Below, piece by piece: positions 9,519-42,926 of a stretch of DNA of 43,439 bases. The stretch covers positions 1-43,439 of the forward strand of contig CALXZZ010000002.1 in assembly GCA_944393365.1 (NCBI GenBank). Direction: 5' to 3'. Source of the stretch: an uncultured Clostridia bacterium. Its GTDB lineage: Bacteria; Bacillota; Clostridia; TANB77; CAG-508. Made by a program: the position numbers and the translations under genes. The notes under the pieces are model-generated. The model was not told the origin of the DNA, made no database searches, and saw only the letters and a program-made list of their open reading frames with translations. The stretch's first letter is position 1. Each line of letters starts with the position of its first letter.

Positions 9519-12500
9519 TTAATTCTTTCCTAAAACGAATTTCTTAATTAAGATTATTCCTGATACTAATATTCCAAGTGAACTTATTGCTAATGTAATA
9601 TATGCTATATAATTTGTATTTAATCCTGTTGGTGGTAATATTACTAAACTTTCTGATGTCGCATCATCTGGCTCTGATGTACTTGAATCTGTTGGTACAT
9701 AATTTCCTGGTGTTGTTATTAATACAGATCCTCCGTTTTTAATTATCCTTATAATTTCTGCATTGTTTTCTAAGAATGTTTCATCTGCATTAGATAATAA
9801 TCTATATCCTTTTAATGCTACTTCTATAGTTGATCTGCTGTCTGAAGTTATTGTTTCTAAACCAACTGGTACTAATGCTTCACCTTCAAAGTCATCTGTT
9901 GTAATAACTCTACTAGTATCTGATAATACATCTTCTAAATCTTCTGATAATAATCCAGTGTTTATCAATTGTTCTTTTCTATTATCTTGATTTATTGTAT
10001 CCCAAGCTGCGTTTTCACTCATATCTGTTGATAAATTATTATCCAAATAATCTATAATCAATGCTGGTTGTAATGTTACTATACTATTTGCTTCTTCACC
10101 ATGACCAGTTCCATACATATAGAAATCTTGTGTTAAATATTCTAATTCACTAGTATTTGTTACTTCTAAGTTGTATTCTAATTCTATTCTTGCACTTTGT
10201 ACAACTTCTTGATCAACCTCTATTCTTACCATTCCATTTGCTCCTGGAGAAACCGGTGTTACAGATACATGTTGTGCTTGATCTACTAATTGTCCGTTTT
10301 CTAATTTTGCATTAACTAACAAGTTTCCGTCTGCTAATGTAATTCTTGCTGAAGTTATATGCTTATCTAATTCTAATATTTGTCTTGCTCTTTCAATTAT
10401 ACCAAAATCAACACTACTAATTGTATTTTCTAATTGATTAGTATAATCTGTAATATTATTATTATTGTCATCTGTATCAGTATATTCAATATATACTCTA
10501 AAGCTTTGTGTATTAGAATTCATTTGTGCATTATCATATTTATCTCCTGTTTCACTATCTCTATATGTATTTTCAAATTTTTGTTTTTCTCCATAAGTCA
10601 TTTCTTCTGTTTCTGAATCTATTTCAACTCTTGTTGCATAATCATCTACAGCATCTGAAGTTCTTATTTCTGTATTTGTTGTAGTATTCCATTCTAAGTC
10701 TTCATATGCTTGTTTAAAGGTATCATTATACCATTGATCTGATGTTCCTTTTGCATTCCATACATCTTCATTTACTACTGTACTCTTATAATTTTGTACA
10801 TTAACAACTTGTTCTTCTCCATCGTCTAAGGTATATGTTGAGTTAAGACCTGCGCCGTCTATATTTCCTCCCCATGTATACTGAACTTCATATTCTCCTG
10901 GTATAAATCCTTCAATTGTATATTCTCCGTTTTCATCTGTATATGTTATAGCATCTTCAAATTCTTCTGTATCTTTGTTATACACTTGAACTACATTTCC
11001 ATCTGTATCTACTAATGATACTCTTACATTTTCAATTCCTAGCTCATCTTCGTCATATTGTCCATTTCCTTGTCTTGCTATTCCTGTATGTACTTGCTGT
11101 CCGTCCTCTACAGCATTTTCGTCAGTATCTAAGAATACTTTTCCATTTACTCGTCTTTCTAACAAATCTGGATTTTCGTCTGGATCTGGATCTGGGTCTG
11201 GATCTGGGTCTGGATCTGGATCTGGGTCTGGATCCGGACTAGGATCTGGAATAAGTTCATTTGTTAATACTAATAATATACCTGGTGCTTTATCAGTATC
11301 GTCTTCCCATGTTGTCCTATCATTAATATCTGTATTTCCTGGTTGAGAATCTTTGTCTATTCCTGCATATACTTCATTTGTTCCTTCACTATTTGTTTTG
11401 GTTATACCATATTTCTTAATTTCTGATATATTATCCAATTTAGAATTTTCACTATCAGTATTTTCTATAATTTCAATAATGTCATCTTTATGAACTTGGA
11501 ATTGTATATATATATATCTTTCTTCTAACGGTTTTAATTCCAATATTGGCATATTATCTCCACCTATTGTCATTCCTTCATATTCACTACTTATTTCTTC
11601 TATTAATGAAGTATTAAGTCTAGTTTCTTCCTTTATGCTTCCATCCACATTAATATCTGTTCCTACTGCTATCAAATTATATTTTGAATCAAAATAATCA
11701 TCTAATTCATATATTTTTGCTCCTAGATTAGTTGAATTATTTCTAACAGCTATTTTATATGTCAATTCTACAGCTAATGGATCACCATTATCTCCATTAT
11801 AATATACATCTGATGCATATAATGGCCTTGTATATGACATTTCAGAATATTTTTCTTCAAATTTCACTTTTGGATCTAATTCATGTCCACTTACACCATT
11901 ACTATTATCTGCCCATAATTCTTGATTAAATCTATCTCCGTATTTATATACGTGTTGCGTTCCTACTATACTTACTTTAGCACTTTCTATATCTTTTACT
12001 ACAGATAAATCTGGTCTTTCTCTTTTCTTTAATCCCAAATTTATTCCTTCATCAAATGTAGAACCTATTTCTGTTATTCCATTTCTTCTTATATAGTCTG
12101 CAGTCATTATATCTGATAAATATCCTGTTTGACCAACTGATGTATATGCATTATATGTACTAGACGAAATTAAGTATTTATCATCAACTCCATTGACTGG
12201 ATAATATGTTTTATATTCATCTAATGTAACTCCTACATATGGTGCAACTTCTTCTATTGTATCATCATTATATCCAAATAGATATTCTCCTTCATAATCG
12301 ATTGAACTTGTGTAATTTCCAGTATTATATTGGATATCATTTATTTTTGTTCCACTACTATCATTTGATTGTCCTGTTGTAATTTGAGCAAAACCTTCAT
12401 TAAATATTGCTCTATTTTCACCTTCAATAGCATCTGTTCCTCTTTTATTATTTATATCTATAATACTAACTGATTCATAAGCCATACCATTATAAGAAAA

Positions 12501-15500
12501 TTCTATATAATACTTATCTAAGTTGTCTATTAATACATCTACCATTGTATACTTTCCATTAGAATCAGTGTAAGTCTCATCGACTAGCTCTCCATCATCT
12601 TCTTCTCTAAACTGTACTATATTACCTTCATTATCTCTCAGTCTAACAGTAATATTTTCAAGTAATTTGTCATTAACATCATCGCCTATAGACTGATATA
12701 AGTCATTTGTTTCATCTGTTTTTCCTATTTCCCAAGGTATATCTTCCCACGCATATCCTGAAATTTTTATATATTTTCTTTGGTTTTTAACATTCAATGT
12801 GGTTTTTTTGCCATTATTAATAGTCAAACTACTATTTACAACTTTAGGTAAGTCTTCATAACCATAATACGGATTTACAGTTTCTGTTAATTTATATGTT
12901 CCTGCTTCTAATAATTTTATTTCAATCTTTCCATTTTTATTTGTAGTTAGAGTTGTGGCTTTAGTAGTATAAGAAGCATTTCCGTTTTTATCAATTGATA
13001 CATAATAGTTTTCATGAGTGCCTGATGAAGTTTTTTGTAATGTAAATCCTATACCTTGTAATGCTTTATTACTATCTTCATCTGTTTTAGTTATTTCAAG
13101 TCTCCCCTTAATGTCTACAGCTCCAAAAGTAGCAGTCTTTGAAGCATTCGCATATGTATAAACTGTACTACTAGTATAGCTAGCTGTTATCATTCCTTGT
13201 GTTGAACTGGCTGAAATATCAACAGGTCTGCCACTTGAATTTTGATGTTCACCTGATCCAATAGAAGTACATCTATAATATAATTTATATTTTGTTGTTT
13301 TTGGTGTTCTTACAGCATTTTTAGTAGTAACTGTTATTTTCAAGCTATTAATTTTTTCTACATTAGTATTCACTTTTATATAAAATGTTTTATTACTATT
13401 TTGACTCATACTCAAACTAATTGGGTTACCACTACTATTAACAAGAAGACTTGTACTAGTTGACGTTTTTGTTTTGCCACTTTCAGTATAATTTAAAGTC
13501 ATCCCAGTAATTGATGATTCAGTACAATTACTTTTTAATTTATAGGGTCCAACTAGATTATAATTATTATTTAATGCTATTGTATCAACTGAATTAGCAT
13601 CTGCTGTTAAAGTTAATGTTTTTAACGTTTCATTAGAACCGTTCGTTGTAGATTGATTTCTTTTTGATCCTGAACCTCTATAATAATGATCATTTACTGC
13701 ACATAGATGCCATCCAGGATTTGCACAGTTATAACTAACTCCATTACTTCCAGTATATACACCACCTGAAGTCCATCTAATACTAAATCCATATACATTT
13801 GAAGATATAACAACTCCTAACATTCCTGTCATTATAAATACACTAAGCATATTTTTTATTTTTTTATTTTTAAAAGGTTTTATTTTTATTTTACCTTTAA
13901 TAACTAATATTACTACACTCAATAAACCTACTGCTAAAATTGCAAATATAGTATAAGTTATAATACCAGTTTCTATTGAAATCAATAGTTCTGCTTGCGA
14001 ATAATCATCTTCTGATGAATCATTATTTCCTGGGGTAGAATCAATATCAGCTAAATTATTTGCATTTTGACTTATTCCTATTTCTGAAATATTTATAACA
14101 CTTCCTGTTGAATCTTCATCCAAATCTCTTCTTAATGTTAGAGTTAATTCTCTTGATTCACCTGGCTCTATGAATTCTCCTGCAAGACTAGTATTTATTA
14201 AATCTCCACTTTCATTTTTTGACCACGTCATATTATCAGTAGCACTAAATGTGAATCCTTCTGGAATATAGTCTATTATTTGACTTGCAAATCCTTCTGT
14301 ATCACCTTCATTTGTTACAACAATAGTATACTTAACAGTAATACTACTATTTGCAATTTCTCTTGACTTTATATCAACTTTTGTAAATTGTGTATTTTGA
14401 TAATCATAAGTTTTAGTACCACTTGGTGTATTTACTACAACTTGACTTATGTATTTATCTAGCTTAAAGTCAAATCTACTATTACTTACTAATCCCATAT
14501 CAATATTTGATAAACCATTATCGGCAATAGTTAATGTATCAGTTATTCCTACATTTTTTACTACTCCATCTATTGATACTTCTCTAGAAATAGTATCTGA
14601 ATTCAATGTAGCTGAAACATTACTTTTTTGATAAGACGTTAAAGAATATTTACCCGTATCATATTCGAACAATACCCAATAATTACCATTTACAATGTTA
14701 TTAAATTCATATGCACCTTGTTCATTTGTAGTTGTTCTTAAAGTTTCACCATTCTCATTTTGTGCTATAGTTTGAGTATTTGCATCATAAACTTTTACTT
14801 CTATACCACTCATTAATTGTTCTGAATTGTCTCTTTTTCCATCTCTATTTGAATCTATCCAAGCAACACCTGAAATAGAATTAGGTTCTGCAGTTGTTCC
14901 CCCATTATTGTTATCTCCATCTCCACCTTGATCACCATCGCCGGTATTAGGATCTTCTTCATCTTCATATGCTGCTAACAATGTAAAACTAACAATATTA
15001 GAAGTAACTGTTTTTATTCCTTCATTTGCCTCTTCTTCAGTTCTTTCAGCAGTTGCATAATTAGACACTTCTACTGTTTCAATAGAATCTATTGCAGTAG
15101 CTTTAATTGTCATTGTAACAGTTTTTCCAGCAGGTATTTCTAAATATTCATCTACATTTGCCTCTCCTTCAATTATTAATGAAAGATCTCTTTCAACTTT
15201 TTCCATTTCATATTTAAGATTTGCTTCAGCTTCAATATCATACATAGTATCCCCAAACTCATCATCTAGGATAACATATTTTTCATATTCAAGAGAAATA
15301 GGTTCAAGATATTCTGGTAAATAATCATATACATGAGCAGTTGCCCTAATTTTTGATTCATTTGTTATTTTCAATGTGTATGTAACTTCTTCTCCTACTG
15401 TAACTTCTTCTCCTTCTTTATCAGAAGACATTTTTATTGTTACATAAGTTGGATATGCAGATCTTCTATTTTCATTTGAATAATAAATATCGTTTTCATC

Positions 15501-18047
15501 ACTATATGCTTTTACTGATAATCTTAATGGAACTTCATTTACATTATCATCAAAATTATATGCTTCTACATCAATTACTATTGTTATCGTTTGCCCTGGA
15601 GCAATAGAAGGTATAATTCCCTCTAAATATCCATTTGCATAATTTCCAAACTTTTGAAGCATTAAATCACTATTAAAAGTATAATAATAAGAATCAAGAA
15701 CATTTAGTTCTTTTTGAAATTCAGTAGATTCTACATATACATTATTTACCGTTTCATTTGTCAAATTGGTAATTTCCAAGAAATATGAAAAAGCATTTTT
15801 TTGGTCTCTTCCTATATATGATTTCAAGTATACATCTAAATCTGATTTTATTAATTTATTTTCTAGTGTAACTCTGTCATATTCTTCATTATCAATACTT
15901 GCAGAAATTGTATTACTTATATCTTTTTCATTAACACCATCTTCTAGGTCTTTAACTACTACTTCATAAAAACCTGTTTTAGTCTGTCCTGGCTCTAATG
16001 TCTCTGCAACAAATGAATATTCTTTCAAATCTGGATTTTCAATATAATCATATGCCTCTTCAAGATATGTACCAATATCTACTGTTGCATAAACTGTATT
16101 TTCTGGTATTTGACAATTTATATTAACATTATTCATTGTTTTATCTGTTGTATTTGTAACATTTACAACATATTTAATAATTTCACTAGTATGAATACTA
16201 TCTCCATTTTCTAGTATTTTATCTCCTACTTGTGCATATACATCTAATTTGATTCCTTCTCTTCTAATTTCTTCATTAGATGTATTTATATTTGAATTCT
16301 CTGAGTCTGGAGTTTCTGTTATTGAATTATTTACATCCTGATCTACTTCTGTTTCCACTAATTGTTCGTTTGTATCTGTTTCAATATTATTAACATTATT
16401 TACTGTATTAACAATATTTAATAAAATATCTTCGCATATTCCTTGTTCTGTTATATAATTATTTCCAGAGATAACCTCATTTGTAAAACTTGCTTTAATA
16501 GCAGTTTCTGTTGTAGTAATGTCATTTCTTACTATTATATTAGCAGGAATTACAATATTAGTTCCATTGTTAATTGTATCATTATTATATGAAGTTTGTT
16601 CTCCTTCTAATTGTATAACAATTTCCTTACTTCCATCACTATTATCTATCACATTGCTATCTGCAACATTAAGACCATTTCCATATAATACAGAAACATC
16701 ACCTAATACTACTTTTTCCACTTCTGATGGTAATGTAATTCTTAAAACAGGGTTTCTAAATAAATTGTATTCATTATCATTTGATTTTAAAGTTGCCGTT
16801 AATACAACATTATTAGTCACACCATTGCCTAAATTATTATTATCAATTTGAAGATCAATATCAGATTTTGCACTTTCTATCTCTGTAATTTTTTGTGAAT
16901 CTTCAACTAACCCATTTGCTAATGATATATTTTCACTAGTAACTATTCTTTTTGCATTCAAATCAGTTACTGTACTTTTTATAACCTTATTATTTTGTAA
17001 TCTAATAATTCCTTCCTTAATTGGTGTAGAAAATTCTAATTTAATATTTTCTGTATTTTCTCCATATAATATTTCTATAATACCTTCTTGAGATTCTTCT
17101 GTATCTTTATTTATCTCTTGCAAAACACTTCCGTCTTGTGCCAATAACTTTATAGTTCCATTTTCTCCCAAAATATTAATCATATCTTGTTTACTTATTT
17201 GAGTACTTGTATAAATAATATTATCAACATCATTCAAATCTTGTCCGTTCTCATTTTGCCAAGTATTACTTTGTTCTATTACTATTTTTTCTCCTATATC
17301 TTTGTAACTAACTAATATATTCATAGATTCTTTATATGTAGTTTCATAAGTAGTACCATAAGCTTTATTGGATTTAATATAACCATCATATACTGTTTCA
17401 GTTCTAATATCTGAAGAAATTATACTACCAATATTTTCAGTAAGATTTTGTGTATATGATAATGTTTGTGTAACACTTCCTATTTCTTCATTATATAAAT
17501 CTTCACTAACTACTGCTTTTATTTCAATATTTCGTTCAGCATTTTGATCTGTATACACATTTTCTCCATATATACAGATAACTTCATATTCATCTCTTGC
17601 TGTGCTATTATATTGATTATATGGCTCTTCTCCTTCATTACTAGCAGTTAATTGTAAAATTCCTTTTTCATTATCATATGAATAATTACCTTCTATATTG
17701 CTAGTCTGTCCATTAGTAGCTTTTGTACTTTGAGCAATTACTTCTATTCTTTCTGGTAATTCTCCATTTATTTTAGGAACTTCTACTAATGTTGTTGTCT
17801 TTTTAATCGCACCATAATTCTGACCCTCTTCATATTCAATTCCTGTTTTTACATTAAATTGCAAAAGAGTGCCTTTTCTTTCTTCGATATTAAAATTATT
17901 ATATTTACTAATTGATATTTCTATTAAAGCTTTTGCTTTTTCTTCTAAGCTATTTACTATTTCTTCTGCAAAAACCATTGAATGTGCAAATAGCAAAGTA
18001 AATATCAACATAAATACAATGACAGTTTTTAAAACTCTTCCCTTCAT
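9519..18047 (-). CDS. Giant fused surface protein (cassette 3: A3 and B3 modules in one 2,842-codon ORF)
   Basis: GGAGG RBS and signal peptide (MKGRVLKTVIVFMLIFTLLFAHSMVFA). The N-terminal 1,399 aa are collinear with the A proteins at 28942-33876 and 38115-42926. The C-terminal 1,443 aa are collinear with the B proteins at 24534-28937 and 34120-38097. It ends with LPPTG, a TM helix and a basic tail. Confidence 0.8.
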   Translation of the reverse strand: MKGRVLKTVIVFMLIFTLLFAHSMVFAEEIVNSLEEKAKALIEISISKYNNFNIEERKGTLLQFNVKTGIEYEEGQNYGAIKKTTTLVEVPKINGELPERIEVIAQSTKATNGQTSNIEGNYSYDNEKGILQLTASNEGEEPYNQYNSTARDEYEVICIYGENVYTDQNAERNIEIKAVVSEDLYNEEIGSVTQTLSYTQNLTENIGSIISSDIRTETVYDGYIKSNKAYGTTYETTYKESMNILVSYKDIGEKIVIEQSNTWQNENGQDLNDVDNIIYTSTQISKQDMINILGENGTIKLLAQDGSVLQEINKDTEESQEGIIEILYGENTENIKLEFSTPIKEGIIRLQNNKVIKSTVTDLNAKRIVTSENISLANGLVEDSQKITEIESAKSDIDLQIDNNNLGNGVTNNVVLTATLKSNDNEYNLFRNPVLRITLPSEVEKVVLGDVSVLYGNGLNVADSNVIDNSDGSKEIVIQLEGEQTSYNNDTINNGTNIVIPANIIVRNDITTTETAIKASFTNEVISGNNYITEQGICEDILLNIVNTVNNVNNIETDTNEQLVETEVDQDVNNSITETPDSENSNINTSNEEIRREGIKLDVYAQVGDKILENGDSIHTSEIIKYVVNVTNTTDKTMNNVNINCQIPENTVYATVDIGTYLEEAYDYIENPDLKEYSFVAETLEPGQTKTGFYEVVVKDLEDGVNEKDISNTISASIDNEEYDRVTLENKLIKSDLDVYLKSYIGRDQKNAFSYFLEITNLTNETVNNVYVESTEFQKELNVLDSYYYTFNSDLMLQKFGNYANGYLEGIIPSIAPGQTITIVIDVEAYNFDDNVNEVPLRLSVKAYSDENDIYYSNENRRSAYPTYVTIKMSSDKEGEEVTVGEEVTYTLKITNESKIRATAHVYDYLPEYLEPISLEYEKYVILDDEFGDTMYDIEAEANLKYEMEKVERDLSLIIEGEANVDEYLEIPAGKTVTMTIKATAIDSIETVEVSNYATAERTEEEANEGIKTVTSNIVSFTLLAAYEDEEDPNTGDGDQGGDGDNNNGGTTAEPNSISGVAWIDSNRDGKRDNSEQLMSGIEVKVYDANTQTIAQNENGETLRTTTNEQGAYEFNNIVNGNYWVLFEYDTGKYSLTSYQKSNVSATLNSDTISREVSIDGVVKNVGITDTLTIADNGLSNIDMGLVSNSRFDFKLDKYISQVVVNTPSGTKTYDYQNTQFTKVDIKSREIANSSITVKYTIVVTNEGDTEGFASQIIDYIPEGFTFSATDNMTWSKNESGDLINTSLAGEFIEPGESRELTLTLRRDLDEDSTGSVINISEIGISQNANNLADIDSTPGNNDSSEDDYSQAELLISIETGIITYTIFAILAVGLLSVVILVIKGKIKIKPFKNKKIKNMLSVFIMTGMLGVVISSNVYGFSIRWTSGGVYTGSNGVSYNCANPGWHLCAVNDHYYRGSGSKRNQSTTNGSNETLKTLTLTADANSVDTIALNNNYNLVGPYKLKSNCTESSITGMTLNYTESGKTKTSTSTSLLVNSSGNPISLSMSQNSNKTFYIKVNTNVEKINSLKITVTTKNAVRTPKTTKYKLYYRCTSIGSGEHQNSSGRPVDISASSTQGMITASYTSSTVYTYANASKTATFGAVDIKGRLEITKTDEDSNKALQGIGFTLQKTSSGTHENYYVSIDKNGNASYTTKATTLTTNKNGKIEIKLLEAGTYKLTETVNPYYGYEDLPKVVNSSLTINNGKKTTLNVKNQRKYIKISGYAWEDIPWEIGKTDETNDLYQSIGDDVNDKLLENITVRLRDNEGNIVQFREEDDGELVDETYTDSNGKYTMVDVLIDNLDKYYIEFSYNGMAYESVSIIDINNKRGTDAIEGENRAIFNEGFAQITTGQSNDSSGTKINDIQYNTGNYTSSIDYEGEYLFGYNDDTIEEVAPYVGVTLDEYKTYYPVNGVDDKYLISSSTYNAYTSVGQTGYLSDIMTADYIRRNGITEIGSTFDEGINLGLKKRERPDLSVVKDIESAKVSIVGTQHVYKYGDRFNQELWADNSNGVSGHELDPKVKFEEKYSEMSYTRPLYASDVYYNGDNGDPLAVELTYKIAVRNNSTNLGAKIYELDDYFDSKYNLIAVGTDINVDGSIKEETRLNTSLIEEISSEYEGMTIGGDNMPILELKPLEERYIYIQFQVHKDDIIEIIENTDSENSKLDNISEIKKYGITKTNSEGTNEVYAGIDKDSQPGNTDINDRTTWEDDTDKAPGILLVLTNELIPDPSPDPDPDPDPDPDPDPDPDPDENPDLLERRVNGKVFLDTDENAVEDGQQVHTGIARQGNGQYDEDELGIENVRVSLVDTDGNVVQVYNKDTEEFEDAITYTDENGEYTIEGFIPGEYEVQYTWGGNIDGAGLNSTYTLDDGEEQVVNVQNYKSTVVNEDVWNAKGTSDQWYNDTFKQAYEDLEWNTTTNTEIRTSDAVDDYATRVEIDSETEEMTYGEKQKFENTYRDSETGDKYDNAQMNSNTQSFRVYIEYTDTDDNNNNITDYTNQLENTISSVDFGIIERARQILELDKHITSARITLADGNLLVNAKLENGQLVDQAQHVSVTPVSPGANGMVRIEVDQEVVQSARIELEYNLEVTNTSELEYLTQDFYMYGTGHGEEANSIVTLQPALIIDYLDNNLSTDMSENAAWDTINQDNRKEQLINTGLLSEDLEDVLSDTSRVITTDDFEGEALVPVGLETITSDSRSTIEVALKGYRLLSNADETFLENNAEIIRIIKNGGSVLITTPGNYVPTDSSTSEPDDATSESLVILPPTGLNTNYIAYITLAISSLGILVSGIILIKKFVLGKN
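9624..9638 (-). other. LPPTG sortase-type sorting motif (B3)
   Basis: VILPPTGLNTNYIAYITLAISSLGILVSGIILIKKFVLGKN: motif, hydrophobic helix and basic tail. Confidence 0.75.
11178..11249 (-). repeat. Hexanucleotide tandem repeat encoding a PDPS(PD)10 linker
   Basis: Repeats of CCAGAT/CCAGAC on the - strand (GGATCTGG/GGGTCTGG on the + strand). They translate to PDPSPDPDPDPDPDPDPDPDPDPD within the B3 module. Confidence 0.9.
13851..18047 (-). other. A3 module of the fused ORF
   Basis: DUF11-like repeats (e.g. VTYTLKITNESKIRATAHVYDYLPEYLEP). SdrD-B-like domain ISGVAWIDSNRDGKRDNSEQLMSGIEVKVYD...GAYEFNNIVNGNYWVLFEYD. The C-terminus is ADIDSTPGNNDSSEDDYSQAELLISIETG, a TM helix and a Lys-rich stretch. 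Confidence 0.75.
13965..13979 (-). other. SIETG motif preceding the A3 TM helix
   Basis: AELLISIETGIITYTIFAILAVGLLSVVILVIKGK. It is positionally equivalent to SIRTG in A1 and A2. Confidence 0.6.
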
Positions 18048-18088
18048 AATTTTCCTCCAATAGCTTAAATATAAATTTCCTTAAATAT

Positions 18089-18117
18089 ATAGTAACTTTT
18101 ATTAAAATTTAAATCAA
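18089..18117 (-). promoter_or_regulatory. Candidate promoter for the cassette-3 ORF
   Basis: On the - strand TTGATT (18117-18112), a 17-nt spacer and TACTAT (18094-18089). All are conserved in the A2 copy. It lies ~40 nt upstream of the start codon. Confidence 0.4.
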
Positions 18118-18140
18118 TATCAGTTTTTTCCAAGCATAAT

Positions 18141-18169
18141 AAAAAAACCTTCCGCCTACTACGGAAGGT
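18141..18169 (-). terminator. Intrinsic terminator hairpin inside the conserved module (A3 copy)
   Basis: On the - strand ACCTTCCG, a 7-nt loop and CGGAAGGT are followed by TTTTTTT. No co-directional gene lies immediately upstream of this copy. Confidence 0.6.
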
Positions 18170-18282
18170 CATTTCGCCATTTTTCGTCTTGTTTTTTTAA
18201 GTTTACTTTACATTTGTGTAACATTTGTAATATTTTTTATTTTTATTTCTACCCAAAATTATTAATACATAGGGAGAGTTGA

Positions 18283-24246: not shown

Positions 24247-24285
24247 TTGTAATTCCTCCACACAATTATGTTTATTACTAATATA

Positions 24286-33956: not shown

Positions 33957-33979
33957 TATCAATTTTTTCCAAACATAAT

Positions 33980-34008
33980 AAAAAAACCTTCCGCCTGCTA
34001 CGGAAGGT
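33980..34008 (-). terminator. Intrinsic terminator after B1 (A2-copy of the module hairpin)
   Basis: On the - strand ACCTTCCG, a 7-nt loop, CGGAAGGT and TTTTTTT, ~110 nt downstream of the B1 stop codon. Confidence 0.7.
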
Positions 34009-34119
34009 CATTTCGCCATTTTTCGTCTTGTTTTTTTAAGTTTAGTTTACATTTGTGTAACATTTGTAATATTTTTTATTTTACTTCTTCTTAATATATT
34101 ACTTAATCTTTAGGGATAG

Positions 34120-37100
34120 TTAATCTTTAGATTTTTTTAGTACTTTTCTTTTTATTAGTATAATTCCTCCGCCAATAATTACTAATGCTACTATTCCGAT
34201 TGTTATTGGCAATACATATGCTAAATTTCTACCTGTTGCTGGAGTAATTATAACCGTCTCAGCCATATCATCATCAGATTCTGTATGTCCAGTACCTGGT
34301 ACGTAGTTTCCTGGTGTAGATACTAAATCTGATCCTCCTGTTTTATCTACTTCTACTATCTCAGTTTCATTATCTAAAGATATATCTTCACTTGTTGTTA
34401 ATATCTTAGATACATTTAACATTACACTTTGTGAATTTGCAGGTTCTATTGGTGTATTTCTTAAAGTATCTGTATAAAGAATTGTCTTGTCATTTATTGT
34501 TGTTGTTTCATTTTCAAATACATCTTGTTGTAACAATTCTCTTACTTCATCTAATGTTCTAACTTGCCAATCTGGGTTACTTGCATTATCAAATGCCCAA
34601 TCATTATCTAAGTAATCTATTATTCCTGATGCATTGATTGTTACTACATCTCCTTCTATAATTCCATATTTATAGAAGTTTTCTGATAAGTAATCTAATT
34701 CGCTATTATTAGTTGCTACAAATTCATATCCTACTTCTAGTGTTGCACCTTGTATCAATTCATTATCTAACTCTACTCTTACAAATCCATTAGCAGGACT
34801 TGTAGTATTTGATGGTGGCATATATGTTACATTACTGCTATCTCCTGTTATAGTTCCATCATCTTCTAATCTGATATTAGTAACTTGTTGTCCGTTAGCT
34901 AATGTAATTTTTAAGTTTCTTACTTTCTTAGCAATTGTAAGATCTTGTTTAGCTCTTTCAATAATTCCAAAGTCTATATTTCTTATTTGATATGTGTATC
35001 TATCTCCGGCTGATGCAGTTGTTGTTGTGTCATATTCTACACCTATTCCCATTGTTGGGGTTGTAGAATTCATTTTGTCAATTGTTGTTTGTGTACTATT
35101 TTGTATATGTGTTAATTCTGCATCTATTGCTTTTCTTAATTCATAATCATCTAAAGCATCCGTATAACGTGTGTCTACATCCTCTTTATACCATTCTTTA
35201 TTAGTTTGATCCCTATTAGTATTATATACTGTACCTTTATAGTTTTGTACTGTATAAGTTTCGTTTCCCCATGTATATGTTAATGTATAGTCTCCTGGTA
35301 TATATCCACTTATGTAGAAGTCACCATTTTCATCTGTTGTTGCAGTATAAACTTTTCCGCTTCCTGTATTTTCTGTTAATGTTACTTCTACTCCTGCAAT
35401 TCCAGTTTCTCCTTCTTCATAAATTCCGCTACCTTGTCTTACTTTTCCTGTCATAATTCCTGAAGTGTCTTGTCCATTTTCTGCTACTGGTTCATCCTCA
35501 AATACTTTACCTGTCATTTCTCTTGCGTCTGCTACTTCTAATTGTAATGACAATGCTGCATCTGTATCATCTTCATATGTTGTCTTGTCTTCTGGATTAG
35601 AACTTCCTGGATTTGAGTCTTTATCTATACCAGCATATATACTTCCACTTTCATCAAATATTGAATATGAATTAATTTCAACTACATTGTCTAAGTTTTC
35701 TTGTCCATTTAATACATTAATTACAGCTTCTCTATTTAATTCAAATTGTACATATACATTTCCTTCGTTTGAATTTAATGTACTTGTTAATGGTCCTATT
35801 CTAGTATTGTTATTAATTATAACTTTGTTATAGTTACTATCATAAGTTCCGTCTGTATATTCAAGTGCTCCTGTTATATTACCAGCTTCGTCTACACCTG
35901 TACCAATTCCAACAATACTATATCTGCTATCATAGTAATCTACAATACTATTTATTTGAGCAGTTAAAGTTGTTGATTGATTATTCATTGCTATTTTGTA
36001 TGTAATATATACTTTTAATTCTTTACTTGGATCATTTTCATTTACATATTCATAATCAGCTTCATAAATTGCTCTTTTATATGGCTCTGCCGCATATTTT
36101 TCTCCAAATTTAACACCTACATTAAATCCGTCTCCACCATACTCATCTGGATGATTAAATCTTTGTGCATATTCATATGTATGTTCATATCCATTTACTG
36201 CAACTCTTACATTTTCTATATCTTTTGCAATTGCTAAATCAGGTTGTTCTCTTTCATATAAACCTAAATTAATATATTTTATTTCTTCTTGTCCATATGT
36301 AAAATGTTCTCTAATTATATAATCAGTTACATCCGTATTAGCTGTTATTGGATATTGTCCATTATTTATTAATGTTGAAGTATGTTCTAGAGAATTAAAG
36401 TTATATGTTAGTTGATGTCTTTCGTTTCCGTTTTCATCTCTAGTAAATCCTGTTGTTTGTGTTCTTCCTTCTACTACACTAAATCCTCTATTAAATGCGT
36501 CTCTTTCTTCTTTACTTTCTGCAGATTTAGAACCATTATCTACATCAATATGTGGAATTACATTTGTATATGTTAATCCATCATATTCAAATTCAATATA
36601 GTAATCTGATAATTTTTCAATTAGTACATCTGTAAATAGGTATTGTCCATCACCTAAGTCAGCATTTTCTCCTGTCACCATTTCTTTAACAGTTTCACCT
36701 GTTGTTCTATCTTTTAGTCTTACAGTTATACCATTTAATAATATATCATTTGTGTCTGAATAGATTTCTTCACCATTTTCTATTATGTTCTCTTTATATA
36801 AATCATTTCTATCCCATTCTTTTTGGTCTGGTTTATCTACCCAAACGAATCCAGATAATTTTACATATATTTGTTTATTTCCTATTATAAAGTCTGTTGT
36901 TTTATCAACTACTATGTCTTGTTCTTGTCCATCTGTTATGATTTCATATCCATAATTAGGATTTTTAGTTTCATATGCTACATATGTACCAACAATCAAA
37001 TTCTTTATTAGTATTTGACCATTGCTATCTGTTACAAATTCTGTTGCTTGTGATTTGTTATCTACATATGATATATTACCATTTCCATCTTGGCGTACAT

Positions 37101-38097
37101 ATTTTCCAGTTTGTTTATGTTGGATATAGAAACCTACTCCTTGTAATTTAACTTCATGATTGTCCTCATTTACTTTTATTACTCTTAAGTTTCCTAAAAT
37201 AGGTATATCATAATCAAAATCCATTGTAATTTTTTCTTGATCATTATATGGTTCTCTAACTATTAAGTTTTGCATATATCCAGTTTGTGCTTCCAAAAAC
37301 CATATTTTTACACCTTTAACATCTACTGTAGCATTTGCTGTAATTTTTGTTATTCCAGTAACACCACTATTTACTGGGATAGATATGTAAAAATCTCTTC
37401 CAGATTTAATTTGATTTACTGAATACCAATATTCATTATTTCCATTAAAACTACTGTATAATAATCCATTTATACTACCACCATTTTGATCAAGTACTGT
37501 TACCCCTGTCATAGTTCCAGAGAAAGACCAATTAAATGGACCAATTCTTACATATTCTGTACCATTTCTTTGATATGATTTAACTCGAATATTATCTTTG
37601 TTTGTATTATCAGTAATTTTCATATTTCCTAAGCTATTAGCATATTCTGTAGCTTCTGAGTTTAAATAACTGCTATTTCCTTGTCTATTACTTACAAATC
37701 CATTATATAATCCTGCATGATGTTGCCCCACGTTTCTCATCCAAGTATACATGAAATTCCATATTCCATTTGCAACTGGTCCTTTACTTTTTACACTACC
37801 ATTATCTCCTGACAAAATATATGCTAATTTTGCATTATCATTATGTGTTATTTGTTTTCCAGTATAGTCTGTTGATGTCTTTCCACTAATATCTACTTGA
37901 GATATTACTCTATATGTAACACTATTTCTCAAAGCCTGTCCATGCTCAACACAATATATATTAGAATTACTCATATATTGCCAATATGATACTGATAAAT
38001 ATTGTCCAACATAATAGGCAGAACTAATTGTATTTATCCCAAATATTACTATTATTGCCAATATTACTGATAAGATAATTTTCTTTGTCTTATTCAT
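34120..38097 (-). CDS. B1: LPxTG-like-anchored giant surface protein (Cys-containing N-domain, SpaA-like and SdrD-B-like stalk)
   Basis: GGAGG RBS and signal peptide MNKTKKIILSVILAIIVIFGINTISSA. Motifs: IYCVEHG, YMQNLIV, a SpaA-like domain (GFYIQHKQTGKY...GTYVAYETKNPNYGYE), IYVKLSGFVWVDK, GIDKDSNPGS...YEDDTDAA, and a second SdrD-B-like domain (MTGKVFEDEPVAENG...GDFYISGYIPGDYTLTYTW). The C-terminus is VIITPATGRNLAYVLPITIGIVALVIIGGGIILIKRKVLKKSKD. Confidence 0.8.
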   Translation of the reverse strand: MNKTKKIILSVILAIIVIFGINTISSAYYVGQYLSVSYWQYMSNSNIYCVEHGQALRNSVTYRVISQVDISGKTSTDYTGKQITHNDNAKLAYILSGDNGSVKSKGPVANGIWNFMYTWMRNVGQHHAGLYNGFVSNRQGNSSYLNSEATEYANSLGNMKITDNTNKDNIRVKSYQRNGTEYVRIGPFNWSFSGTMTGVTVLDQNGGSINGLLYSSFNGNNEYWYSVNQIKSGRDFYISIPVNSGVTGITKITANATVDVKGVKIWFLEAQTGYMQNLIVREPYNDQEKITMDFDYDIPILGNLRVIKVNEDNHEVKLQGVGFYIQHKQTGKYVRQDGNGNISYVDNKSQATEFVTDSNGQILIKNLIVGTYVAYETKNPNYGYEIITDGQEQDIVVDKTTDFIIGNKQIYVKLSGFVWVDKPDQKEWDRNDLYKENIIENGEEIYSDTNDILLNGITVRLKDRTTGETVKEMVTGENADLGDGQYLFTDVLIEKLSDYYIEFEYDGLTYTNVIPHIDVDNGSKSAESKEERDAFNRGFSVVEGRTQTTGFTRDENGNERHQLTYNFNSLEHTSTLINNGQYPITANTDVTDYIIREHFTYGQEEIKYINLGLYEREQPDLAIAKDIENVRVAVNGYEHTYEYAQRFNHPDEYGGDGFNVGVKFGEKYAAEPYKRAIYEADYEYVNENDPSKELKVYITYKIAMNNQSTTLTAQINSIVDYYDSRYSIVGIGTGVDEAGNITGALEYTDGTYDSNYNKVIINNNTRIGPLTSTLNSNEGNVYVQFELNREAVINVLNGQENLDNVVEINSYSIFDESGSIYAGIDKDSNPGSSNPEDKTTYEDDTDAALSLQLEVADAREMTGKVFEDEPVAENGQDTSGIMTGKVRQGSGIYEEGETGIAGVEVTLTENTGSGKVYTATTDENGDFYISGYIPGDYTLTYTWGNETYTVQNYKGTVYNTNRDQTNKEWYKEDVDTRYTDALDDYELRKAIDAELTHIQNSTQTTIDKMNSTTPTMGIGVEYDTTTTASAGDRYTYQIRNIDFGIIERAKQDLTIAKKVRNLKITLANGQQVTNIRLEDDGTITGDSSNVTYMPPSNTTSPANGFVRVELDNELIQGATLEVGYEFVATNNSELDYLSENFYKYGIIEGDVVTINASGIIDYLDNDWAFDNASNPDWQVRTLDEVRELLQQDVFENETTTINDKTILYTDTLRNTPIEPANSQSVMLNVSKILTTSEDISLDNETEIVEVDKTGGSDLVSTPGNYVPGTGHTESDDDMAETVIITPATGRNLAYVLPITIGIVALVIIGGGIILIKRKVLKKSKD
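34231..34245 (-). other. TPATG sorting-type motif (B1)
   Basis: Motif, TM helix and basic tail, aligned with LPPTG of B3. Confidence 0.55.
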
Positions 38098-38114
38098 CGT
38101 TTCTTCCTCCTTTC

Positions 38115-41100
38115 CTATATTTTCTTATTATGATTTTTCTTTTTCCAAATCATAATTCCTATTATTGTTAATATTATAATAACTGCTACTACTATGCTTA
38201 TATATGTAACCGCACCTGTTCTAATACTTAAGATTACATCTGCGCTTCCTAAATCGTTTTCACTTGTGTCTTGATTTCCTGGTGTTGAATTTACATCAGC
38301 AATACCTAAATCATTATAATCTTCTGCAATTTCTGCTCTGTTATTAATACGTCCTGTATTATTTTCATTCATGTTTTTAACTACTGTTAATGTTACAGTT
38401 TTACTTTCACCTGGTGCTATTGGTTCATTTGATAAAACTGCTGTATAAATTCCATTTCCTGTTTGATACCAATCTTTATTCATTTCTGAGCTAAATGTAA
38501 GATCACTTGGTAGATAATCTACTATTCTTCTTACATATCCAGTTACATCTCCAACATTTGTAACTCTTATTTGGTACTCAATAATAGCTGTTGTTCCATT
38601 TATTTGTTTAGCATCTAATTCTACTTTTGCCATTGTTTCGTCTTGATATTCTCTTACTGTGGTTCCTTTACTATTTTGTAATAATATTCTACTTACATAT
38701 TTATCTAATTGTAAATCATAATTTTGTAATAATGCTAAACCAATATTTATATCTGAAATGTTATTGTTGTTGATTTCTAGAATATCTGTTGAAGCTACTT
38801 CTTCTTCAGTATCACCTATTGTTAATGTATTCATTAATACATCTGAGTTTTCGCTTTCTGTTGCTCCTCCAACTTTATATCTAGTTAAAGTATATCTAGT
38901 ATCATCATATCCAAATATTGCTATATATCTTCCATTTCCGATACCATCTAATACATATACTCCATTATCATTTGTTGTTGCTTCTAATATATCTCCGTCT
39001 GTTGTTCTTACATAATTATTAGTTTCTACATTTAATAATCTTACCGTAATTCCACTTAATTTTTCTTCATTACCATTTAATATACCATCTGCATTTGCAT
39101 CATACCAAGCAACACCTGTTATAGTTCTGTTTCCTGCAGCAATGTCATTGTCGTCTAAATTATTATCTTCATTTCCTGTAGATCCTTCATTTGCTAAAAT
39201 AATATGATTTATTTCTGAAGTAGTTGCAATTGTCTCTCCATAAACTTCTGCAGTTGCTACGTTTGTTATTGGTTCTGCTGTGTCTCTTCCTTCTGAGTAG
39301 TTAACAACAGCTTGAATTTCTATTTGAGTCTCTCCTCCTGCTTCTATATCACATGGTATTTCTAATTCATTAGTATCTGGTACTTCATATTGTTCTCCAT
39401 TTACCAATATTTGTTGAACACTTAATTGTGATGGTATACTATCTCTAATAATTAATCCTTCAGTTTCCGCAGTTGAATTGTTTTTAACATTTATAATATA
39501 TGTTACTACATCTCCTGAATTTAGATATTCGCTTTCTGTTCCATCTTCCATTGTTAATTCAATATCAAAGTTTCTTACTTCATCTTGTAAATTATTAGAT
39601 TTATAATCTTTTTCTCCATCACTTGCTGTAACAGCAAAGTTTATTGAATTATCATCCGTTCTAGTAATTAACATATCATAGCTTAATACTTTATTTTCTC
39701 CTGGTTGTAAACTTCCAATACTAATTTCATCACTATATTCAATATCTTCTGAAACTATATCAGTAGTTGTTTCTCCTATTGTTTCATCATTTTGAGCTAC
39801 TTCTTCAGATGCTTCTTCTCCTACTCTATATATCTCTCCATCTTCTTTTTCCATTCCAGTAATTAAAGTTACTCTTTGTACTTCTAAGTTATCAGAAAAA
39901 TCTGTATGTACTTTTACATCTGATAATTCTTCATCTGAAATATTTTCAATTATTGCAAAATATTGAACTACTCCTGCTGTATATAAATCAACACTGCTAT
40001 CTGTTACTCTTTTTACTGTAACTCTTAAGTTTCCTCTTTCAGTTGTCAATGTATGTGCTTCTGATTGTGAAGTTACCCCATTATATGTAACTTGTAATGT
40101 ATTTTCTAATTTAGTTCCTTCAGGGGTATCTGAATTTACTCTTACTTCATATGTAATTGTTCTTACTTCTCCTGGTTCAATATTTTGTATTGTTGTTCTA
40201 TATTCTCTGTCAGGTAATTCTTCGTAATATGAAGCTCCTGTATATTCATAATTTTCTTCTGGTACCACCATTGTTGTACCTTCTGGTACTTGGCCAACAA
40301 CTTCTATATTACTAATATCTTCTGATCCAGTATTTGAAACTTTTATATTATATTGAATTACTTCCCCATTTTTAACATTTTGTGTTATTTCTTGACCACC
40401 AATTGTTGCAGATAAACTAGCTTCTATTTTTGGTCCTATTCCTGTTTCTAAAGTAATTACTGAAGAATCTAATGTATTTTCTACTGAAGTTTCACTACTT
40501 ACATAACTTACACTATAATATTCTTCTGCTTGCTTATTATACTCTAAGTTTTCAGGAATTTGAATTGAGTATGCAATTTCAACACTTGCTCCTGTTTCTA
40601 ATTGGTCTACAATTATTAAGTATTTTTTCGCATCTTGTGTAAATTCTGTATTCCATCCATTATCTCTATTATTTAAATCATTTGTAGCATTTTCATTTCC
40701 AGTATAATAAATCGTAACATCTGGTTTTGATACTTGTATTGCATTAATAAGTTGAATTCCTAAATTATTTTCTTCACTATTTGTAGGTAATGTTCCAAGA
40801 ATTCTTACATTATTCATTATACTTTCTGTTGTATTTATTATTTCAGATTGTATTTCCAATTGTTTAGGTACATTTTGTGTTATTAAATTTACACTTGTAT
40901 TTTGTTCTTGCCCAGTTGTTTCTACTGAAATTGCTGGTATACTATTAATTATTGTCAAATCCTTTGGTGCAACTATTCTAATTGCTTGTGTTTCAGTACC
41001 TATAGTTGTATTATTTTTATATGAATGAGCATTTTCATTTTCGTAATACATTGTAATATTTGTATCTGCTGTTGCAGTTTTTCTATCTAAGCTTAAATTT

Positions 41101-42926
41101 GCATTTATTACTAATACTGCTCCTTCAATTGTTGCTTCTTTGTATTTTGTTTGTTCTCCTTGTAATGTAACTATAATATTTCTTCCGTCTACACTGTAAT
41201 TTGCTACACTTAATTCATCCTCATATAAAAGTTCTACACCTGTAATTTCAACATTCTGTACTTGCTCTGGTAATTCAAATCTAAATACAGGATTTCTATA
41301 TAAGTCATATTGTTCACTATTTGATAATAATGTAGCTCTTATTTCTATATCATTATCTACTACTGTAGATAATGTACTTTTGTCTACTTCAAATTTACTT
41401 TGTGTTGTTGTTTCATTTAAAATAATATTGTTTTCTACTGTTCCCATTTCTTGTCCATCATAGCTAAGTCTTGTTATATATCCAAATTGTCCTAATTCTG
41501 CTATGTTACTTGAACTGTCAGGAATTAGTTTTTTATAATTTTTTAGTTCTAAAGTTCCTTCTTTAATTGGTACTGATGTTTCTAATCTTATTGTTGTTGG
41601 TTCACTACTATAAGTGATTGCTATATTCCCATCTTCATCTATTTGACTTGAATTAGTAACTCTTCCTATAACTTGATTATTTTCATCATATATTGTTATC
41701 TCTCCTGTTTGTCCAAACAATTCATCAAATTGCTCTTTAGCTATAAGTGTTCTTGTATATACATCTCTTAATGTGTTTTGATTTGCACTTTCTTCAATTG
41801 TTATTCCTTCAGTAATAGCTCTAGCTAAATTAATATCAATATTTGTATCTACTACATATTCTTTTTCTAGTCCTGCATATAATTTTCCTTTATATATACT
41901 TTGTTGTTCTGACAATGAGTTAATAGTTACAATACTATCTTTTTCTTCATTATCTAAGATAATTGTTCTATCAAATGTTATCTCTTTATTGTCATATAAT
42001 GTTACTGATTCATTTACATCTAGTTCTTGATTTGTTATTTCTACATCACTATCATAAATAAATGTTAATACTATTTTTTCAGTTCCATCTAATTTCCAAC
42101 GAATTTCATTATTATCATTTGGATCATTTGTATAATTAAAGGTTACATATGATCCATCATATGCATAATCATAATATGTCATTTCATTGAAGTCTACAAC
42201 TCTTGCAACTTCTGCTCTTTTACCATCAATTGTTGGAACTTCTATTCTAAGTGAAATATCTTTCATAGGATAGTTATTATCTTCTAATCCAACATTCCAT
42301 AAAAATTGAACTACTCTTTTGTCTTCTCCATTTATAGATGCTATTTTATTTGTAATAACTTCAATATCATTTACTATATTATCAGATGAATAGTTTTCAA
42401 TTAAATTTAATTCTAGGTTTCTTTCAGCTTCTATTTTTATATCTCTTTCAGTACTATCATAATAATTTCCTTCTAGTTTTATCGTATTTGTTTTAGTTAA
42501 ATTGTCTAAATTGAAAATTTCATCTTTGATTAACTCTACTTTTATTTTGATATCTGCTACTGTATTTGCATTAATTTGATTTAGAGTAATCGTATTTCCT
42601 TCTATTTTGTTTACATAGCTACTGTCTGTATCTGTTAAAGTAAAATTGCTATCTTCAATAGTGATTTTACCATTAAAGTAACCTTCTTGTTTTACTTCAA
42701 CTTGCATATTTAAATAAATATCTCCTTCATTTGCCATATCAACAGAAGATATTCTTTGATTATTTGAATCTGTGAAATATGCATCAAATTCAATATTTCT
42801 GTGGTTTGTTTCTACTCCACTTGCTGCATAACTAATAAGACTTGAACCTACAAATATAAAATTTGTTAATGTTAAAGTCATAATTAGTAGTATGATTGTG
42901 GTTATTTTTATTATTTTATTTTTCAT
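38115..42926 (-). CDS. A1: giant DUF11-like and SdrD-B-like repeat surface protein with SIRTG and a TM helix
   Basis: I place the start at ATG 42926 (GGAGGA 7 nt upstream). The ORF-track GTG at 42962 falls at or upstream of the predicted transcription start. Signal peptide MKNKIIKITTIILLIMTLTLTNFIFVGSSLISYA. DUF11-like repeats (IQYNIKVSNTGSEDISNIEVVGQVPEG; VTYIINVKNNSTAETEGLIIRDSIPS). SdrD-B-like domain ITGVAWYDANADGILNGNEEKLSGITVRLLN. The C-terminus is ADVNSTPGNQDTSENDLGSADVILSIRTG, a TM helix and KKKNHNKKI. Confidence 0.8.
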   Translation of the reverse strand: MKNKIIKITTIILLIMTLTLTNFIFVGSSLISYAASGVETNHRNIEFDAYFTDSNNQRISSVDMANEGDIYLNMQVEVKQEGYFNGKITIEDSNFTLTDTDSSYVNKIEGNTITLNQINANTVADIKIKVELIKDEIFNLDNLTKTNTIKLEGNYYDSTERDIKIEAERNLELNLIENYSSDNIVNDIEVITNKIASINGEDKRVVQFLWNVGLEDNNYPMKDISLRIEVPTIDGKRAEVARVVDFNEMTYYDYAYDGSYVTFNYTNDPNDNNEIRWKLDGTEKIVLTFIYDSDVEITNQELDVNESVTLYDNKEITFDRTIILDNEEKDSIVTINSLSEQQSIYKGKLYAGLEKEYVVDTNIDINLARAITEGITIEESANQNTLRDVYTRTLIAKEQFDELFGQTGEITIYDENNQVIGRVTNSSQIDEDGNIAITYSSEPTTIRLETSVPIKEGTLELKNYKKLIPDSSSNIAELGQFGYITRLSYDGQEMGTVENNIILNETTTQSKFEVDKSTLSTVVDNDIEIRATLLSNSEQYDLYRNPVFRFELPEQVQNVEITGVELLYEDELSVANYSVDGRNIIVTLQGEQTKYKEATIEGAVLVINANLSLDRKTATADTNITMYYENENAHSYKNNTTIGTETQAIRIVAPKDLTIINSIPAISVETTGQEQNTSVNLITQNVPKQLEIQSEIINTTESIMNNVRILGTLPTNSEENNLGIQLINAIQVSKPDVTIYYTGNENATNDLNNRDNGWNTEFTQDAKKYLIIVDQLETGASVEIAYSIQIPENLEYNKQAEEYYSVSYVSSETSVENTLDSSVITLETGIGPKIEASLSATIGGQEITQNVKNGEVIQYNIKVSNTGSEDISNIEVVGQVPEGTTMVVPEENYEYTGASYYEELPDREYRTTIQNIEPGEVRTITYEVRVNSDTPEGTKLENTLQVTYNGVTSQSEAHTLTTERGNLRVTVKRVTDSSVDLYTAGVVQYFAIIENISDEELSDVKVHTDFSDNLEVQRVTLITGMEKEDGEIYRVGEEASEEVAQNDETIGETTTDIVSEDIEYSDEISIGSLQPGENKVLSYDMLITRTDDNSINFAVTASDGEKDYKSNNLQDEVRNFDIELTMEDGTESEYLNSGDVVTYIINVKNNSTAETEGLIIRDSIPSQLSVQQILVNGEQYEVPDTNELEIPCDIEAGGETQIEIQAVVNYSEGRDTAEPITNVATAEVYGETIATTSEINHIILANEGSTGNEDNNLDDNDIAAGNRTITGVAWYDANADGILNGNEEKLSGITVRLLNVETNNYVRTTDGDILEATTNDNGVYVLDGIGNGRYIAIFGYDDTRYTLTRYKVGGATESENSDVLMNTLTIGDTEEEVASTDILEINNNNISDINIGLALLQNYDLQLDKYVSRILLQNSKGTTVREYQDETMAKVELDAKQINGTTAIIEYQIRVTNVGDVTGYVRRIVDYLPSDLTFSSEMNKDWYQTGNGIYTAVLSNEPIAPGESKTVTLTVVKNMNENNTGRINNRAEIAEDYNDLGIADVNSTPGNQDTSENDLGSADVILSIRTGAVTYISIVVAVIIILTIIGIMIWKKKNHNKKI
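38214..38228 (-). other. SIRTG motif preceding the A1 TM helix
   Basis: GSADVILSIRTGAVTYISIVVAVIIILTIIGIMIWKKKNHNKKI. Confidence 0.6.

Follow-up and report, generated by a model that had tools for sequence, protein, structure and literature searches.

Three tandem cassettes of paired giant surface proteins, one of them fused, in an uncultured lineage of gut Clostridia

The window analyzed here, meaning the whole 43,439-nucleotide (nt) stretch at positions 1 to 43,439 of contig CALXZZ010000002.1 (assembly GCA_944393365.1, an uncultured Clostridia bacterium of the CAG-508 lineage), has a G+C content of ~28% and carries on its minus strand three copies of a cassette encoding two very large surface proteins, called A and B throughout. 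In the list of open reading frames (ORFs) the first cassette consists of A1 (38115-42926, 1603 aa) and B1 (34120-38097, 1325 aa). The second, made up of A2 (28942-33876, 1644 aa) and B2 (24534-28937, 1467 aa), repeats the layouts of A1 and B1 by ORF, BLASTP, and Pfam analysis. The third is a single ORF (9519-18047, 2842 aa) in which an A3 portion (13965-18047, aa 1-1361) with a C-terminal SIETG is joined through a hairpin (13788-13964) to a B3 portion (9519-13787, aa 1421-2842). The longest mechanical ORF for A1 opens at a GTG at 42962, however, the start is probably at 42926 because the ATG at that position has AGGAGG ahead of it. The 17-nt spacer between A1 and B1 (38098-38114, minus) holds the B1 ribosome-binding site, AAGGAGG, the gap between A2 and B2 is 4 nt with the B2 ribosome-binding site within the final codons of A2, and the A3-B3 junction has neither a stop codon nor a ribosome-binding site ahead of its internal Met. 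An earlier, sequence-only reading of this DNA had placed three A-then-B cassettes at these positions on the minus strand with spacings of 17 nt, 4 nt, and zero (fused), and both the ORF list and the sequence agree with it. It had also put a B ribosome-binding site in or near every A tail, which holds for the first two cassettes and fails for the third, and had described the block as free of enzyme, regulator, transporter, and sortase genes, none of which was found in it.

The cassettes are diverged paralogues, collinear overall at 29-39% identity. In an all-vs-all BLASTP comparison of the modules, A1 and A2 align once along nearly their whole length (1-1596 with 1-1616, 29% identity, E 5e-157), A3 matches A2 in two collinear segments, and A3 matches A1 over the C-terminal 340 residues at 37% identity. 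The three B modules are 29-33% identical in every pairing, over single alignments of ~1,000-1,250 residues (E 1e-120 to 5e-152) that mostly exclude a diverged N-terminal head. The collinearity of the A modules and of the B modules, as previously proposed, is therefore confirmed, and the shared motifs listed at that time were all seen in the translations and the alignment. All six modules have the features of a signal peptide when read from the translations (basic n-region, hydrophobic core, and small-x-small cleavage site). In A1 the signal peptide is followed by approximately seven immunoglobulin (Ig)-like domains without a Pfam match (aa 36-850), CLIPPER/DUF11 repeats, an SdrD_B domain (aa 1271-1375), a C-terminal CLIPPER-like domain, the motif SIRTG, a membrane helix, and a KKK tail. 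In B1 it is followed by the head (aa 27-300), a SpaA domain (aa 302-401), an SdrD-like domain, a CLIPPER-like domain ending GIDKDSNPG...YEDDTD, a second SdrD_B domain (aa 889-968), a C-terminal CLIPPER-like domain, the motif TPATG, a membrane helix, and a basic tail. The Pfam search agrees with the original assignment of DUF11 and SdrD_B domains to A and of SpaA and SdrD_B domains to B, with all CLIPPER/DUF11, SpaA, and SdrD_B matches over the gathering scores. For the DUF11 family PF01345 (cut-off 24.6 bits), the scores were 64 bits in A1, 27.3 in A2, and 26.3 in the fused ORF; TIGR01451 matched A1 at 51.1 bits and the SpaA matches in B reached 41.7-71.1 bits. No S-layer homology or CWB2 domains were detected by Pfam in A or B.

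The long central parts of both proteins resemble known stalks. An AlphaFold2 model of A1 aa 36-850 (pLDDT, the predicted local distance difference test score, 88.6) is all beta with about seven sandwich domains, and in the PDB it is most similar to the Ig-like stalk of PrgB, an Enterococcus adhesin, to the legs of integrin alpha, and to the MG domains of alpha-2-macroglobulin. Since this region models as Ig-like stalk domains, A is a headless rod of such domains. The B profile, when searched against the PDB, matched only the SpaA/CnaB domains of pilins (9lty, 4oq1, 3phs, and BcpA 3kpt). DUF11 was renamed CLIPPER in 2025, and crystallography has defined it as a stalk domain of the CnaA type that has an internal Lys-Asn isopeptide bond and a triad of Lys715, Asp748, and Asn806 (PMC12617251). 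The C-terminal CLIPPER-like domain of A has K1409, D1470, and N1529 at the positions expected from the Lys-Asn-Asp triad of that structure, each 100% conserved among 129 A sequences. In 113 B sequences, K308, E376, and N407 of the SpaA domain are 97-99% conserved, and K1057 and N1243 of the C-terminal domain are invariant. The stalks of A and B thus carry the residues expected of isopeptide-bond families, with the bonds themselves predicted from sequence.

Both proteins end in the same type of module. The last 340 residues of A are homologous to the last 445 of B (hhalign probability 99.9%, E 1e-35), and this common C-terminal part comprises an SdrD_B domain, a CLIPPER-like domain marked by the signature D-x-[DN]-S-T-P-G-N ... 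E-D-D, and a putative anchor that resembles LPXTG anchors. Within the anchor, A ends [SG][IVL]xTG, and B ends TP[ANSP]TG in the first cassette and xPTG in the other cassettes; the motif is followed in both proteins by a hydrophobic helix of ~23 residues and a Lys/Arg tail. The TG is 100% conserved in the 129 A and 113 B sequences (A1 T1570/G1571; B1 T1288/G1289), and the residues ahead of it remain distinct and class-specific for A and B in all species and cassettes. On the minus strand of the window these motifs are SIRTG of A1 at 38214-38228 (membrane helix 38145-38213, then the basic tail), TPATG of B1 at 34231-34245 (membrane helix 34153-34224, then an IKRK tail), SIRTG of A2 at 29104-29118, TGPTG of B2 at 24633-24647, and LPPTG of B3 at 9624-9638, again with a membrane helix and a basic tail. 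The LPXTG_anchor model TIGR01167 (cut-off 15.9 bits) gives borderline scores of 16.1 for A1, 15.5 for B1, and 14.0 for B2, and no match for A2, A3, or B3. That A ends in a membrane helix, as the first description had it, is correct, however, it does not end in a helix alone, a sorting-signal-like motif also being present. The suggested division into a membrane-anchored A and a wall-anchored B finds no support in that form, as both bear the homologous anchor module and the LPXTG model gives A1 a score no lower than that of B1. No sortase-like ORF is present in the window, and none was found within 10 kb in the 3.1 Mb of 163 related loci (phmmer, E<=10, with an approximate Staphylococcus aureus SrtA query); TLxTC motifs in the 163 loci occur only in antisense ORFs.

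The head of B has no counterpart among known structures. The B1 head (37198-38019, minus) gave an AlphaFold2 model with a pLDDT of 92.1, consisting of an alpha/beta part followed by a beta sandwich, for which no fold match at E<0.001 was returned from the PDB (Foldseek) or BFVD. The head is also without a Pfam match, seven heads gave no match to the thioester-domain (TED) family at E<=10, and a profile of 15 head sequences had no match to PDB sequences at E<=10. It is a rare domain, found in 198 clusters among 1.84 billion representatives, and in nearly all matches it stands at the N-terminus, with full-length proteins of ~1300-1900 aa. Each head has a Cys in a short motif, namely NIYCVEH with Cys49 in B1 (37939-37962, minus), SAYCIDPD in B2 (28710-28733, minus), and SYNCANPG in B3 (13713-13736, minus). 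Cys49 is present in 67/67 first-cassette orthologues, and most of the highly diverged heads of other cassettes likewise have a Cys, set in a comparable C[IVM][NQDE] context. In TED proteins the Cys lies in the context [YF]C[IVM][EQDN], to which that of the B head is similar, and a V-Q-N-A-I-W helix, at the place of B1 aa 107-115 (37753-37779), resembles their TQxA(I/V)W motif. At position 109, where this TQxAIW-like motif has its Gln, 32 of the 67 orthologues have Q, 27 have A, and four have S, with B1 itself among those lacking Gln; Cys49 and Gln276 are both invariant in 15 diverse heads. A thioester domain was considered for the B head on the strength of these similar motifs and rejected, with Pfam, the PDB profile search, and Foldseek against PDB and BFVD all negative and the TQxAIW-like Gln variable. 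By all tests run, the head is a lineage-specific domain and not a member of the TED family. Neither A nor the B head contains a recognizable adhesive domain by Pfam, PDB sequence, or fold searches.

The pairing of A with B recurs in relatives. In a forward test, one genome per species was scanned with the B alignment, the best 80 of 266 relatives were used, and their ORFs were classified with custom A and B hidden Markov models (HMMs). All 80 loci came from metagenome-assembled genomes of uncultured gut Clostridia (humans, mice, chickens, and rabbits), including Clostridium sp. CAG:343. A complete A lies directly upstream of B for 91/92 B genes with an intact N-terminus, the remaining one being without flanking sequence. 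The gap between the two runs from -17 to +27 nt and is most often 20-21 nt, the spacing at which it is held in the first cassette of relatives. Members of the lineage have one to three cassettes, and the commonest layouts are one cassette, two split cassettes, and one split plus one fused cassette. For the reverse test, metagenomes were scanned with 10 closer sequences aligned over the N-terminal region of A, and 107 complete A genes were recovered. An HMM-recognized B follows 73 of the 107, and for 12 the flanking sequence is too short. Among the other 22, most have within ~30 nt downstream an ORF with a signal peptide that is cut off by the contig end, and the two such ORFs that were inspected have B-type domains. 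The exceptions in this direction are a truncated B (L096), larger gaps (L131 and L151), and an apparently frameshifted fused cassette (L111). A-then-B adjacency, which the earlier reading had proposed to survey in other genomes, is thus nearly universal in either direction. A and B distances also co-vary when the neighboring PBP2 is controlled for (partial Mantel r = 0.59, with 0/999 permutations as high), although a shared recombination history could contribute to this.

Fusion of the two genes is not peculiar to the window. In A3-B3 the hairpin comprises a membrane helix (aa 1362-1383), a basic loop, KGKIKIKPFKNKKIKN (aa 1384-1399), and a signal-peptide-like helix (aa 1400-1420) that ends VYG before FS. 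Among the 80 loci, 25 species carry their second cassette as a fused ORF of 2558-3176 aa, and none does so with its first. The junction was read in 23 of the 25 fused ORFs, and the A motif xxTG, the membrane helix, the short basic loop, and the signal-peptide-like helix are all kept. The sequences of these junctions differ widely, and their signal peptides end in small-x-small sites such as VFA, VNA, VSA, and VYG. Fused and split forms are interspersed on a neighbor-joining tree of B that is without support values, which would mean at least three or four transitions between them. On this tree the first cassette, which is in every genome found, evolves slowly and uniformly, and the second and third change much more quickly. 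That two genes become fused is classically taken to indicate that their products are functionally linked. As A and B are always together and sometimes fused, the two proteins very likely work together, and their linkage supports a functional coupling that is putative as to any complex. The earlier proposal that A and B act as a unit therefore stands in so far as the pair is conserved, duplicates as a pair, and is repeatedly fused into one ORF whose hairpin has the correct topology. Three apparently split second cassettes (L016 14240-23210, L036 15288-24390, and L111 19058-24767) are fused types with a frameshift and overlapping ORFs, and may be assembly errors or pseudogenes.

Taken together, we think it probable that the cassette encodes two co-expressed, very long, rod-shaped Gram-positive surface proteins that act as one fibrillar structure, most plausibly in adhesion within the gut. 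A and B, whose genes are translationally coupled or fused, would be produced jointly and in equal amounts, be exported via Sec, and be tethered by their C-terminal signals, whether by a housekeeping sortase whose gene lies elsewhere or just by the membrane helix, and the two motif classes (S-I-x-T-G in A; T-P-x-T-G or x-P-T-G in B) could direct them to different anchoring fates. In the fused form the A ectodomain would lie outside and the A helix would cross inward, the basic loop would be cytoplasmic, consistent with the positive-inside rule, and the internal signal peptide would re-export B. The conservation of the cleavage site leads us to expect that signal peptidase separates A from B, and the fusion would then behave as a polyprotein equal to the split pair, with the addition of a guaranteed 1:1 ratio and co-localization. 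The B head may be a ligand-binding tip, making B the likely binding component and A a partner rod or spacer. The diverged second and third cassettes may provide alternative specificities or antigenic variants, and their fast evolution fits variable specificity or antigenicity.

Several points weigh against this interpretation. Adhesion is read from the architecture alone, the head having no recognizable adhesin fold. The sorting motifs depart from the canonical form and have borderline scores under the LPXTG model, and sortase processing is unsupported because there is no sortase in the window or within 10 kb in the 163 loci. All relatives belong to one lineage, and common descent together with shared recombination tracts could account for both the synteny and the co-variation of distances without any interaction. 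The binding of A to B is conjectural, and the number of fusion events is drawn from a neighbor-joining tree that has no support values. A more ambitious version of the same idea is doubtful. It would have A and B form an obligate two-component fiber, with the fused forms being true polyproteins split by the internal helix and signal peptide, possibly also by a sortase at the A motif, and with the B head as a new fold whose Cys, perhaps with Gln276, makes a thioester-like bond to a host or partner molecule.

The alternative that fares best, though we consider it unlikely, is that A and B are two independent adhesins which share an operon, with an inherited gene order, fusion by loss of a stop codon that is neutral because a membrane helix ahead of a signal peptide can be accommodated, and no interaction between the proteins. 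The restriction to one lineage and a syntenic locus means that the linkage may be historical, and the distant paralogy of A and B in their C-terminal third would fit one adhesin gene having been duplicated in tandem long ago. Fusion never involves the first cassette, and the interconversion of fused and split forms suggests that there is little selective difference between them. However, the pair has come through ~55-70% sequence divergence between paralogous cassettes and several duplications with no clear lone A or B, first-cassette spacing stays at 20-21 nt, and fused junctions have retained an internal signal peptide together with its cleavage site. The co-variation of A and B also persists after the PBP2 control (r = 0.59), and a headless A would be unusual for a stand-alone adhesin.

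Somewhat less likely again is a two-subunit pilus assembled by sortase, in which cleavage of a B tip at T-P-x-T|G would let its Thr bond to a Lys of A, and A would in turn be cut at S-I-x-T|G and linked to the wall. The parallel here is Bacillus cereus, with its BcpB tip, BcpA shaft, and motif-specific sortase reactions. The SpaA-type domains of B do match pilin structures (3kpt, 9lty, 4oq1, and 3phs), the residues before the invariant TG are class-specific in A and B across all species and cassettes, and a fixed gene order with expression at equal dose would suit a heterodimeric fiber. Pilus clusters normally carry their own class C sortase, however, and none was found in the window or the 3.1 Mb of related loci. 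The proteins are also three to five times the typical pilin size. As for an acceptor, K397 and K465 in the N-terminal half of A are >95% conserved, although they may instead be partners in intramolecular isopeptide bonds. The only pilin-motif-like Lys in A, in YP[IM]K at aa 220-223, was examined and rejected, as it is variable, with Q, E, or R in place of Lys even in close orthologues, and is absent from the A2 type.

A structural envelope or spore coat, meaning a surface layer akin to the two SlpA subunits of Clostridioides difficile or a product of sporulation, is highly improbable. In its favor, the locus always lies between cell-shape/division genes and spoIIE, the first cassette is in every genome found and evolves slowly and uniformly, a fused precursor with two products recalls SlpA, and the leader has an ATATT-containing promoter-like element, yet S-layer homology and CWB2 domains are absent, elongated stalks with C-terminal anchors are not a lattice-forming architecture, adjacency to spoIIE is not evidence of co-regulation, and nothing ties these genes to sporulation sigma factors.

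Comparison with known systems places the individual proteins more readily than the pair. Like fibrillar adhesins, A and B have a signal peptide, a long run of beta-sandwich stalk domains, a putative C-terminal anchor, CLIPPER, SpaA, and SdrD_B domains, and Lys-Asp/Glu-Asn triads. They differ from them in forming an obligatory ordered pair that is sometimes fused, in the headlessness of A, in a B head that matches no known adhesive domain, and in their non-canonical sorting motifs (SIxTG and TPxTG). Sortase-dependent pili, such as BcpA-SrtD-BcpB and SpaABC of Corynebacterium, share with A and B the tandem structural genes, the SpaA/CnaB domains, and the subunit-specific sorting motifs. In contrast, the A-B locus is without a sortase and no conserved pilin-motif Lys was found in it, and its subunits are 1300-1650 aa long (~300-900 aa in those pili) and occur as two partners at 1:1, with polymerization unsupported. 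The TED/TIE adhesins (Cpa and SfbI of Streptococcus pyogenes and Cpe0147 of Clostridium perfringens) resemble B in having an N-terminal head on an isopeptide- or ester-bonded stalk, and the invariant Q276 of the B head could be a bond partner. In contrast, the TQxAIW-like Gln is Ala or Ser in about half of the orthologues. The SlpA precursor of C. difficile is alike by analogy, as one product or a coupled pair gives two surface proteins in equal amounts. SlpA is cut extracellularly by the protease Cwp84 and binds the wall via CWB2 domains, whereas the predicted separation of the fused cassette is by an internal membrane helix and signal peptide, and there is no domain in common. In TANB77, an uncultured gut order, a Tad-type pilus cluster with TadZ, CpaF, TadBC, and small pilins of 143-236 aa has been described (PMC11680825), and it is likewise a lineage-specific surface-appendage locus of uncultured low-GC gut Clostridia (PMC11680825). 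We considered whether A-B could be this Tad "pilin" system and rejected the idea, since the machinery is different and unrelated to A or B.

A literature search returned no description of the A-B pairing, and none of an internal signal peptide with a sortase or of a CAG-508 surface protein. The view that the paired architecture is not a described system can therefore be retained for the pairing and not for the individual proteins, which are built of known stalk domains. Each protein alone is recognizable as a fibrillar-adhesin or pilin-like surface protein. The features for which no description was found are the obligatory pairing, the repeated membrane-hairpin fusion, the anchor module with two motif classes, and a head without a solved relative.

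In a widespread lineage of uncultured low-GC gut Clostridia, hosted by humans, mice, chickens, rabbits, and ruminants, A and B rank with the largest surface proteins and with those most consistently present. Both are prime candidates for attachment to mucus, food particles, or other cells, and for recognition by the host immune system. The repeated fusion that keeps the hairpin makes the coupling testable and would be a natural example of a membrane-resolved surface polyprotein. If the head forms a covalent bond, it would widen the range of covalent bacterial adhesins and of protein-ligation tools.

Two of the cassettes are preceded by similar non-coding leaders. The leaders of A2 (33877-34110, minus) and of the fused A3-B3 (18048-18280, minus) are ~95% identical over ~220 nt, whereas the proteins encoded downstream are only ~30-39% identical. 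Both contain the direct repeat ACAAATGTTACACAAATGTAAA, a GC-rich hairpin followed by a T-run (34009-33985 ahead of A2 and 18170-18146 ahead of A3-B3), and a promoter-like element, which in the A2 leader is TTGATATTGATTT...TACTATAT, and the leaders are partly conserved in relatives. The hairpin ahead of A3-B3 cannot terminate an upstream gene because a divergently oriented gene precedes it. A riboswitch or another known RNA in the leaders was considered and rejected, as no Rfam family reached its gathering score in the window, the A2 leader gave only a chance-level match (E 0.72), and the leader fold is not more stable than that of shuffled sequence (z = -1.3). The near identity of the two leaders points to recent gene conversion or strong regulatory constraint.

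As had been noted earlier, two genes separate the second and third cassettes, however, they are not both on the minus strand. At 18613-19374 on the plus strand, divergent from the fused cassette, lies the only plus-strand gene within the block, which encodes a 253-aa protein with choline-binding (cell-wall-binding) repeats. The other gene (19462-24261, minus) encodes a 1599-aa protein with Listeria-Bacteroides repeats, a dockerin domain, and large internal duplications. Its N-terminus has a single membrane helix, KENGVTIVVLVVTIIVLLILA, which is prepilin-signal-like without the usual Glu at +5.

In relatives the locus lies between MreC-MreD-PBP2-MinC on one side and SpoIIE on the other. Downstream of the block in the window there are minus-strand genes at 3731-4975, 5052-6572, and 6583-9039, and the downstream genes include SpoIIE, a WG-repeat protein, and a 414-aa protein without a Pfam match. 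Relatives have genes of corresponding length in the same order, with SpoIIE identified in three of these and the other two matched by ORF length only. Because this downstream order is shared, the cassettes appear to hold a fixed chromosomal slot. Just upstream of A1, a 96-aa ORF (43117-43407, minus) corresponds to the C-terminal part of a PDDEXK_9 nuclease-family protein. The sole other assembly with A1 also breaks ~640 nt upstream, at the PDDEXK_9 gene. In one relative (L131), a complete AAA-ATPase_like/PDDEXK_9 gene (7896-9564) separates two A-B cassettes, and for this reason a further, fourth cassette may lie beyond the window edge. Between the first A and MinC, relatives L004-L083 have two opposite-strand ORFs of ~126-178 aa without a Pfam match, and at this position the window carries the PDDEXK_9 fragment in place of the two small ORFs.

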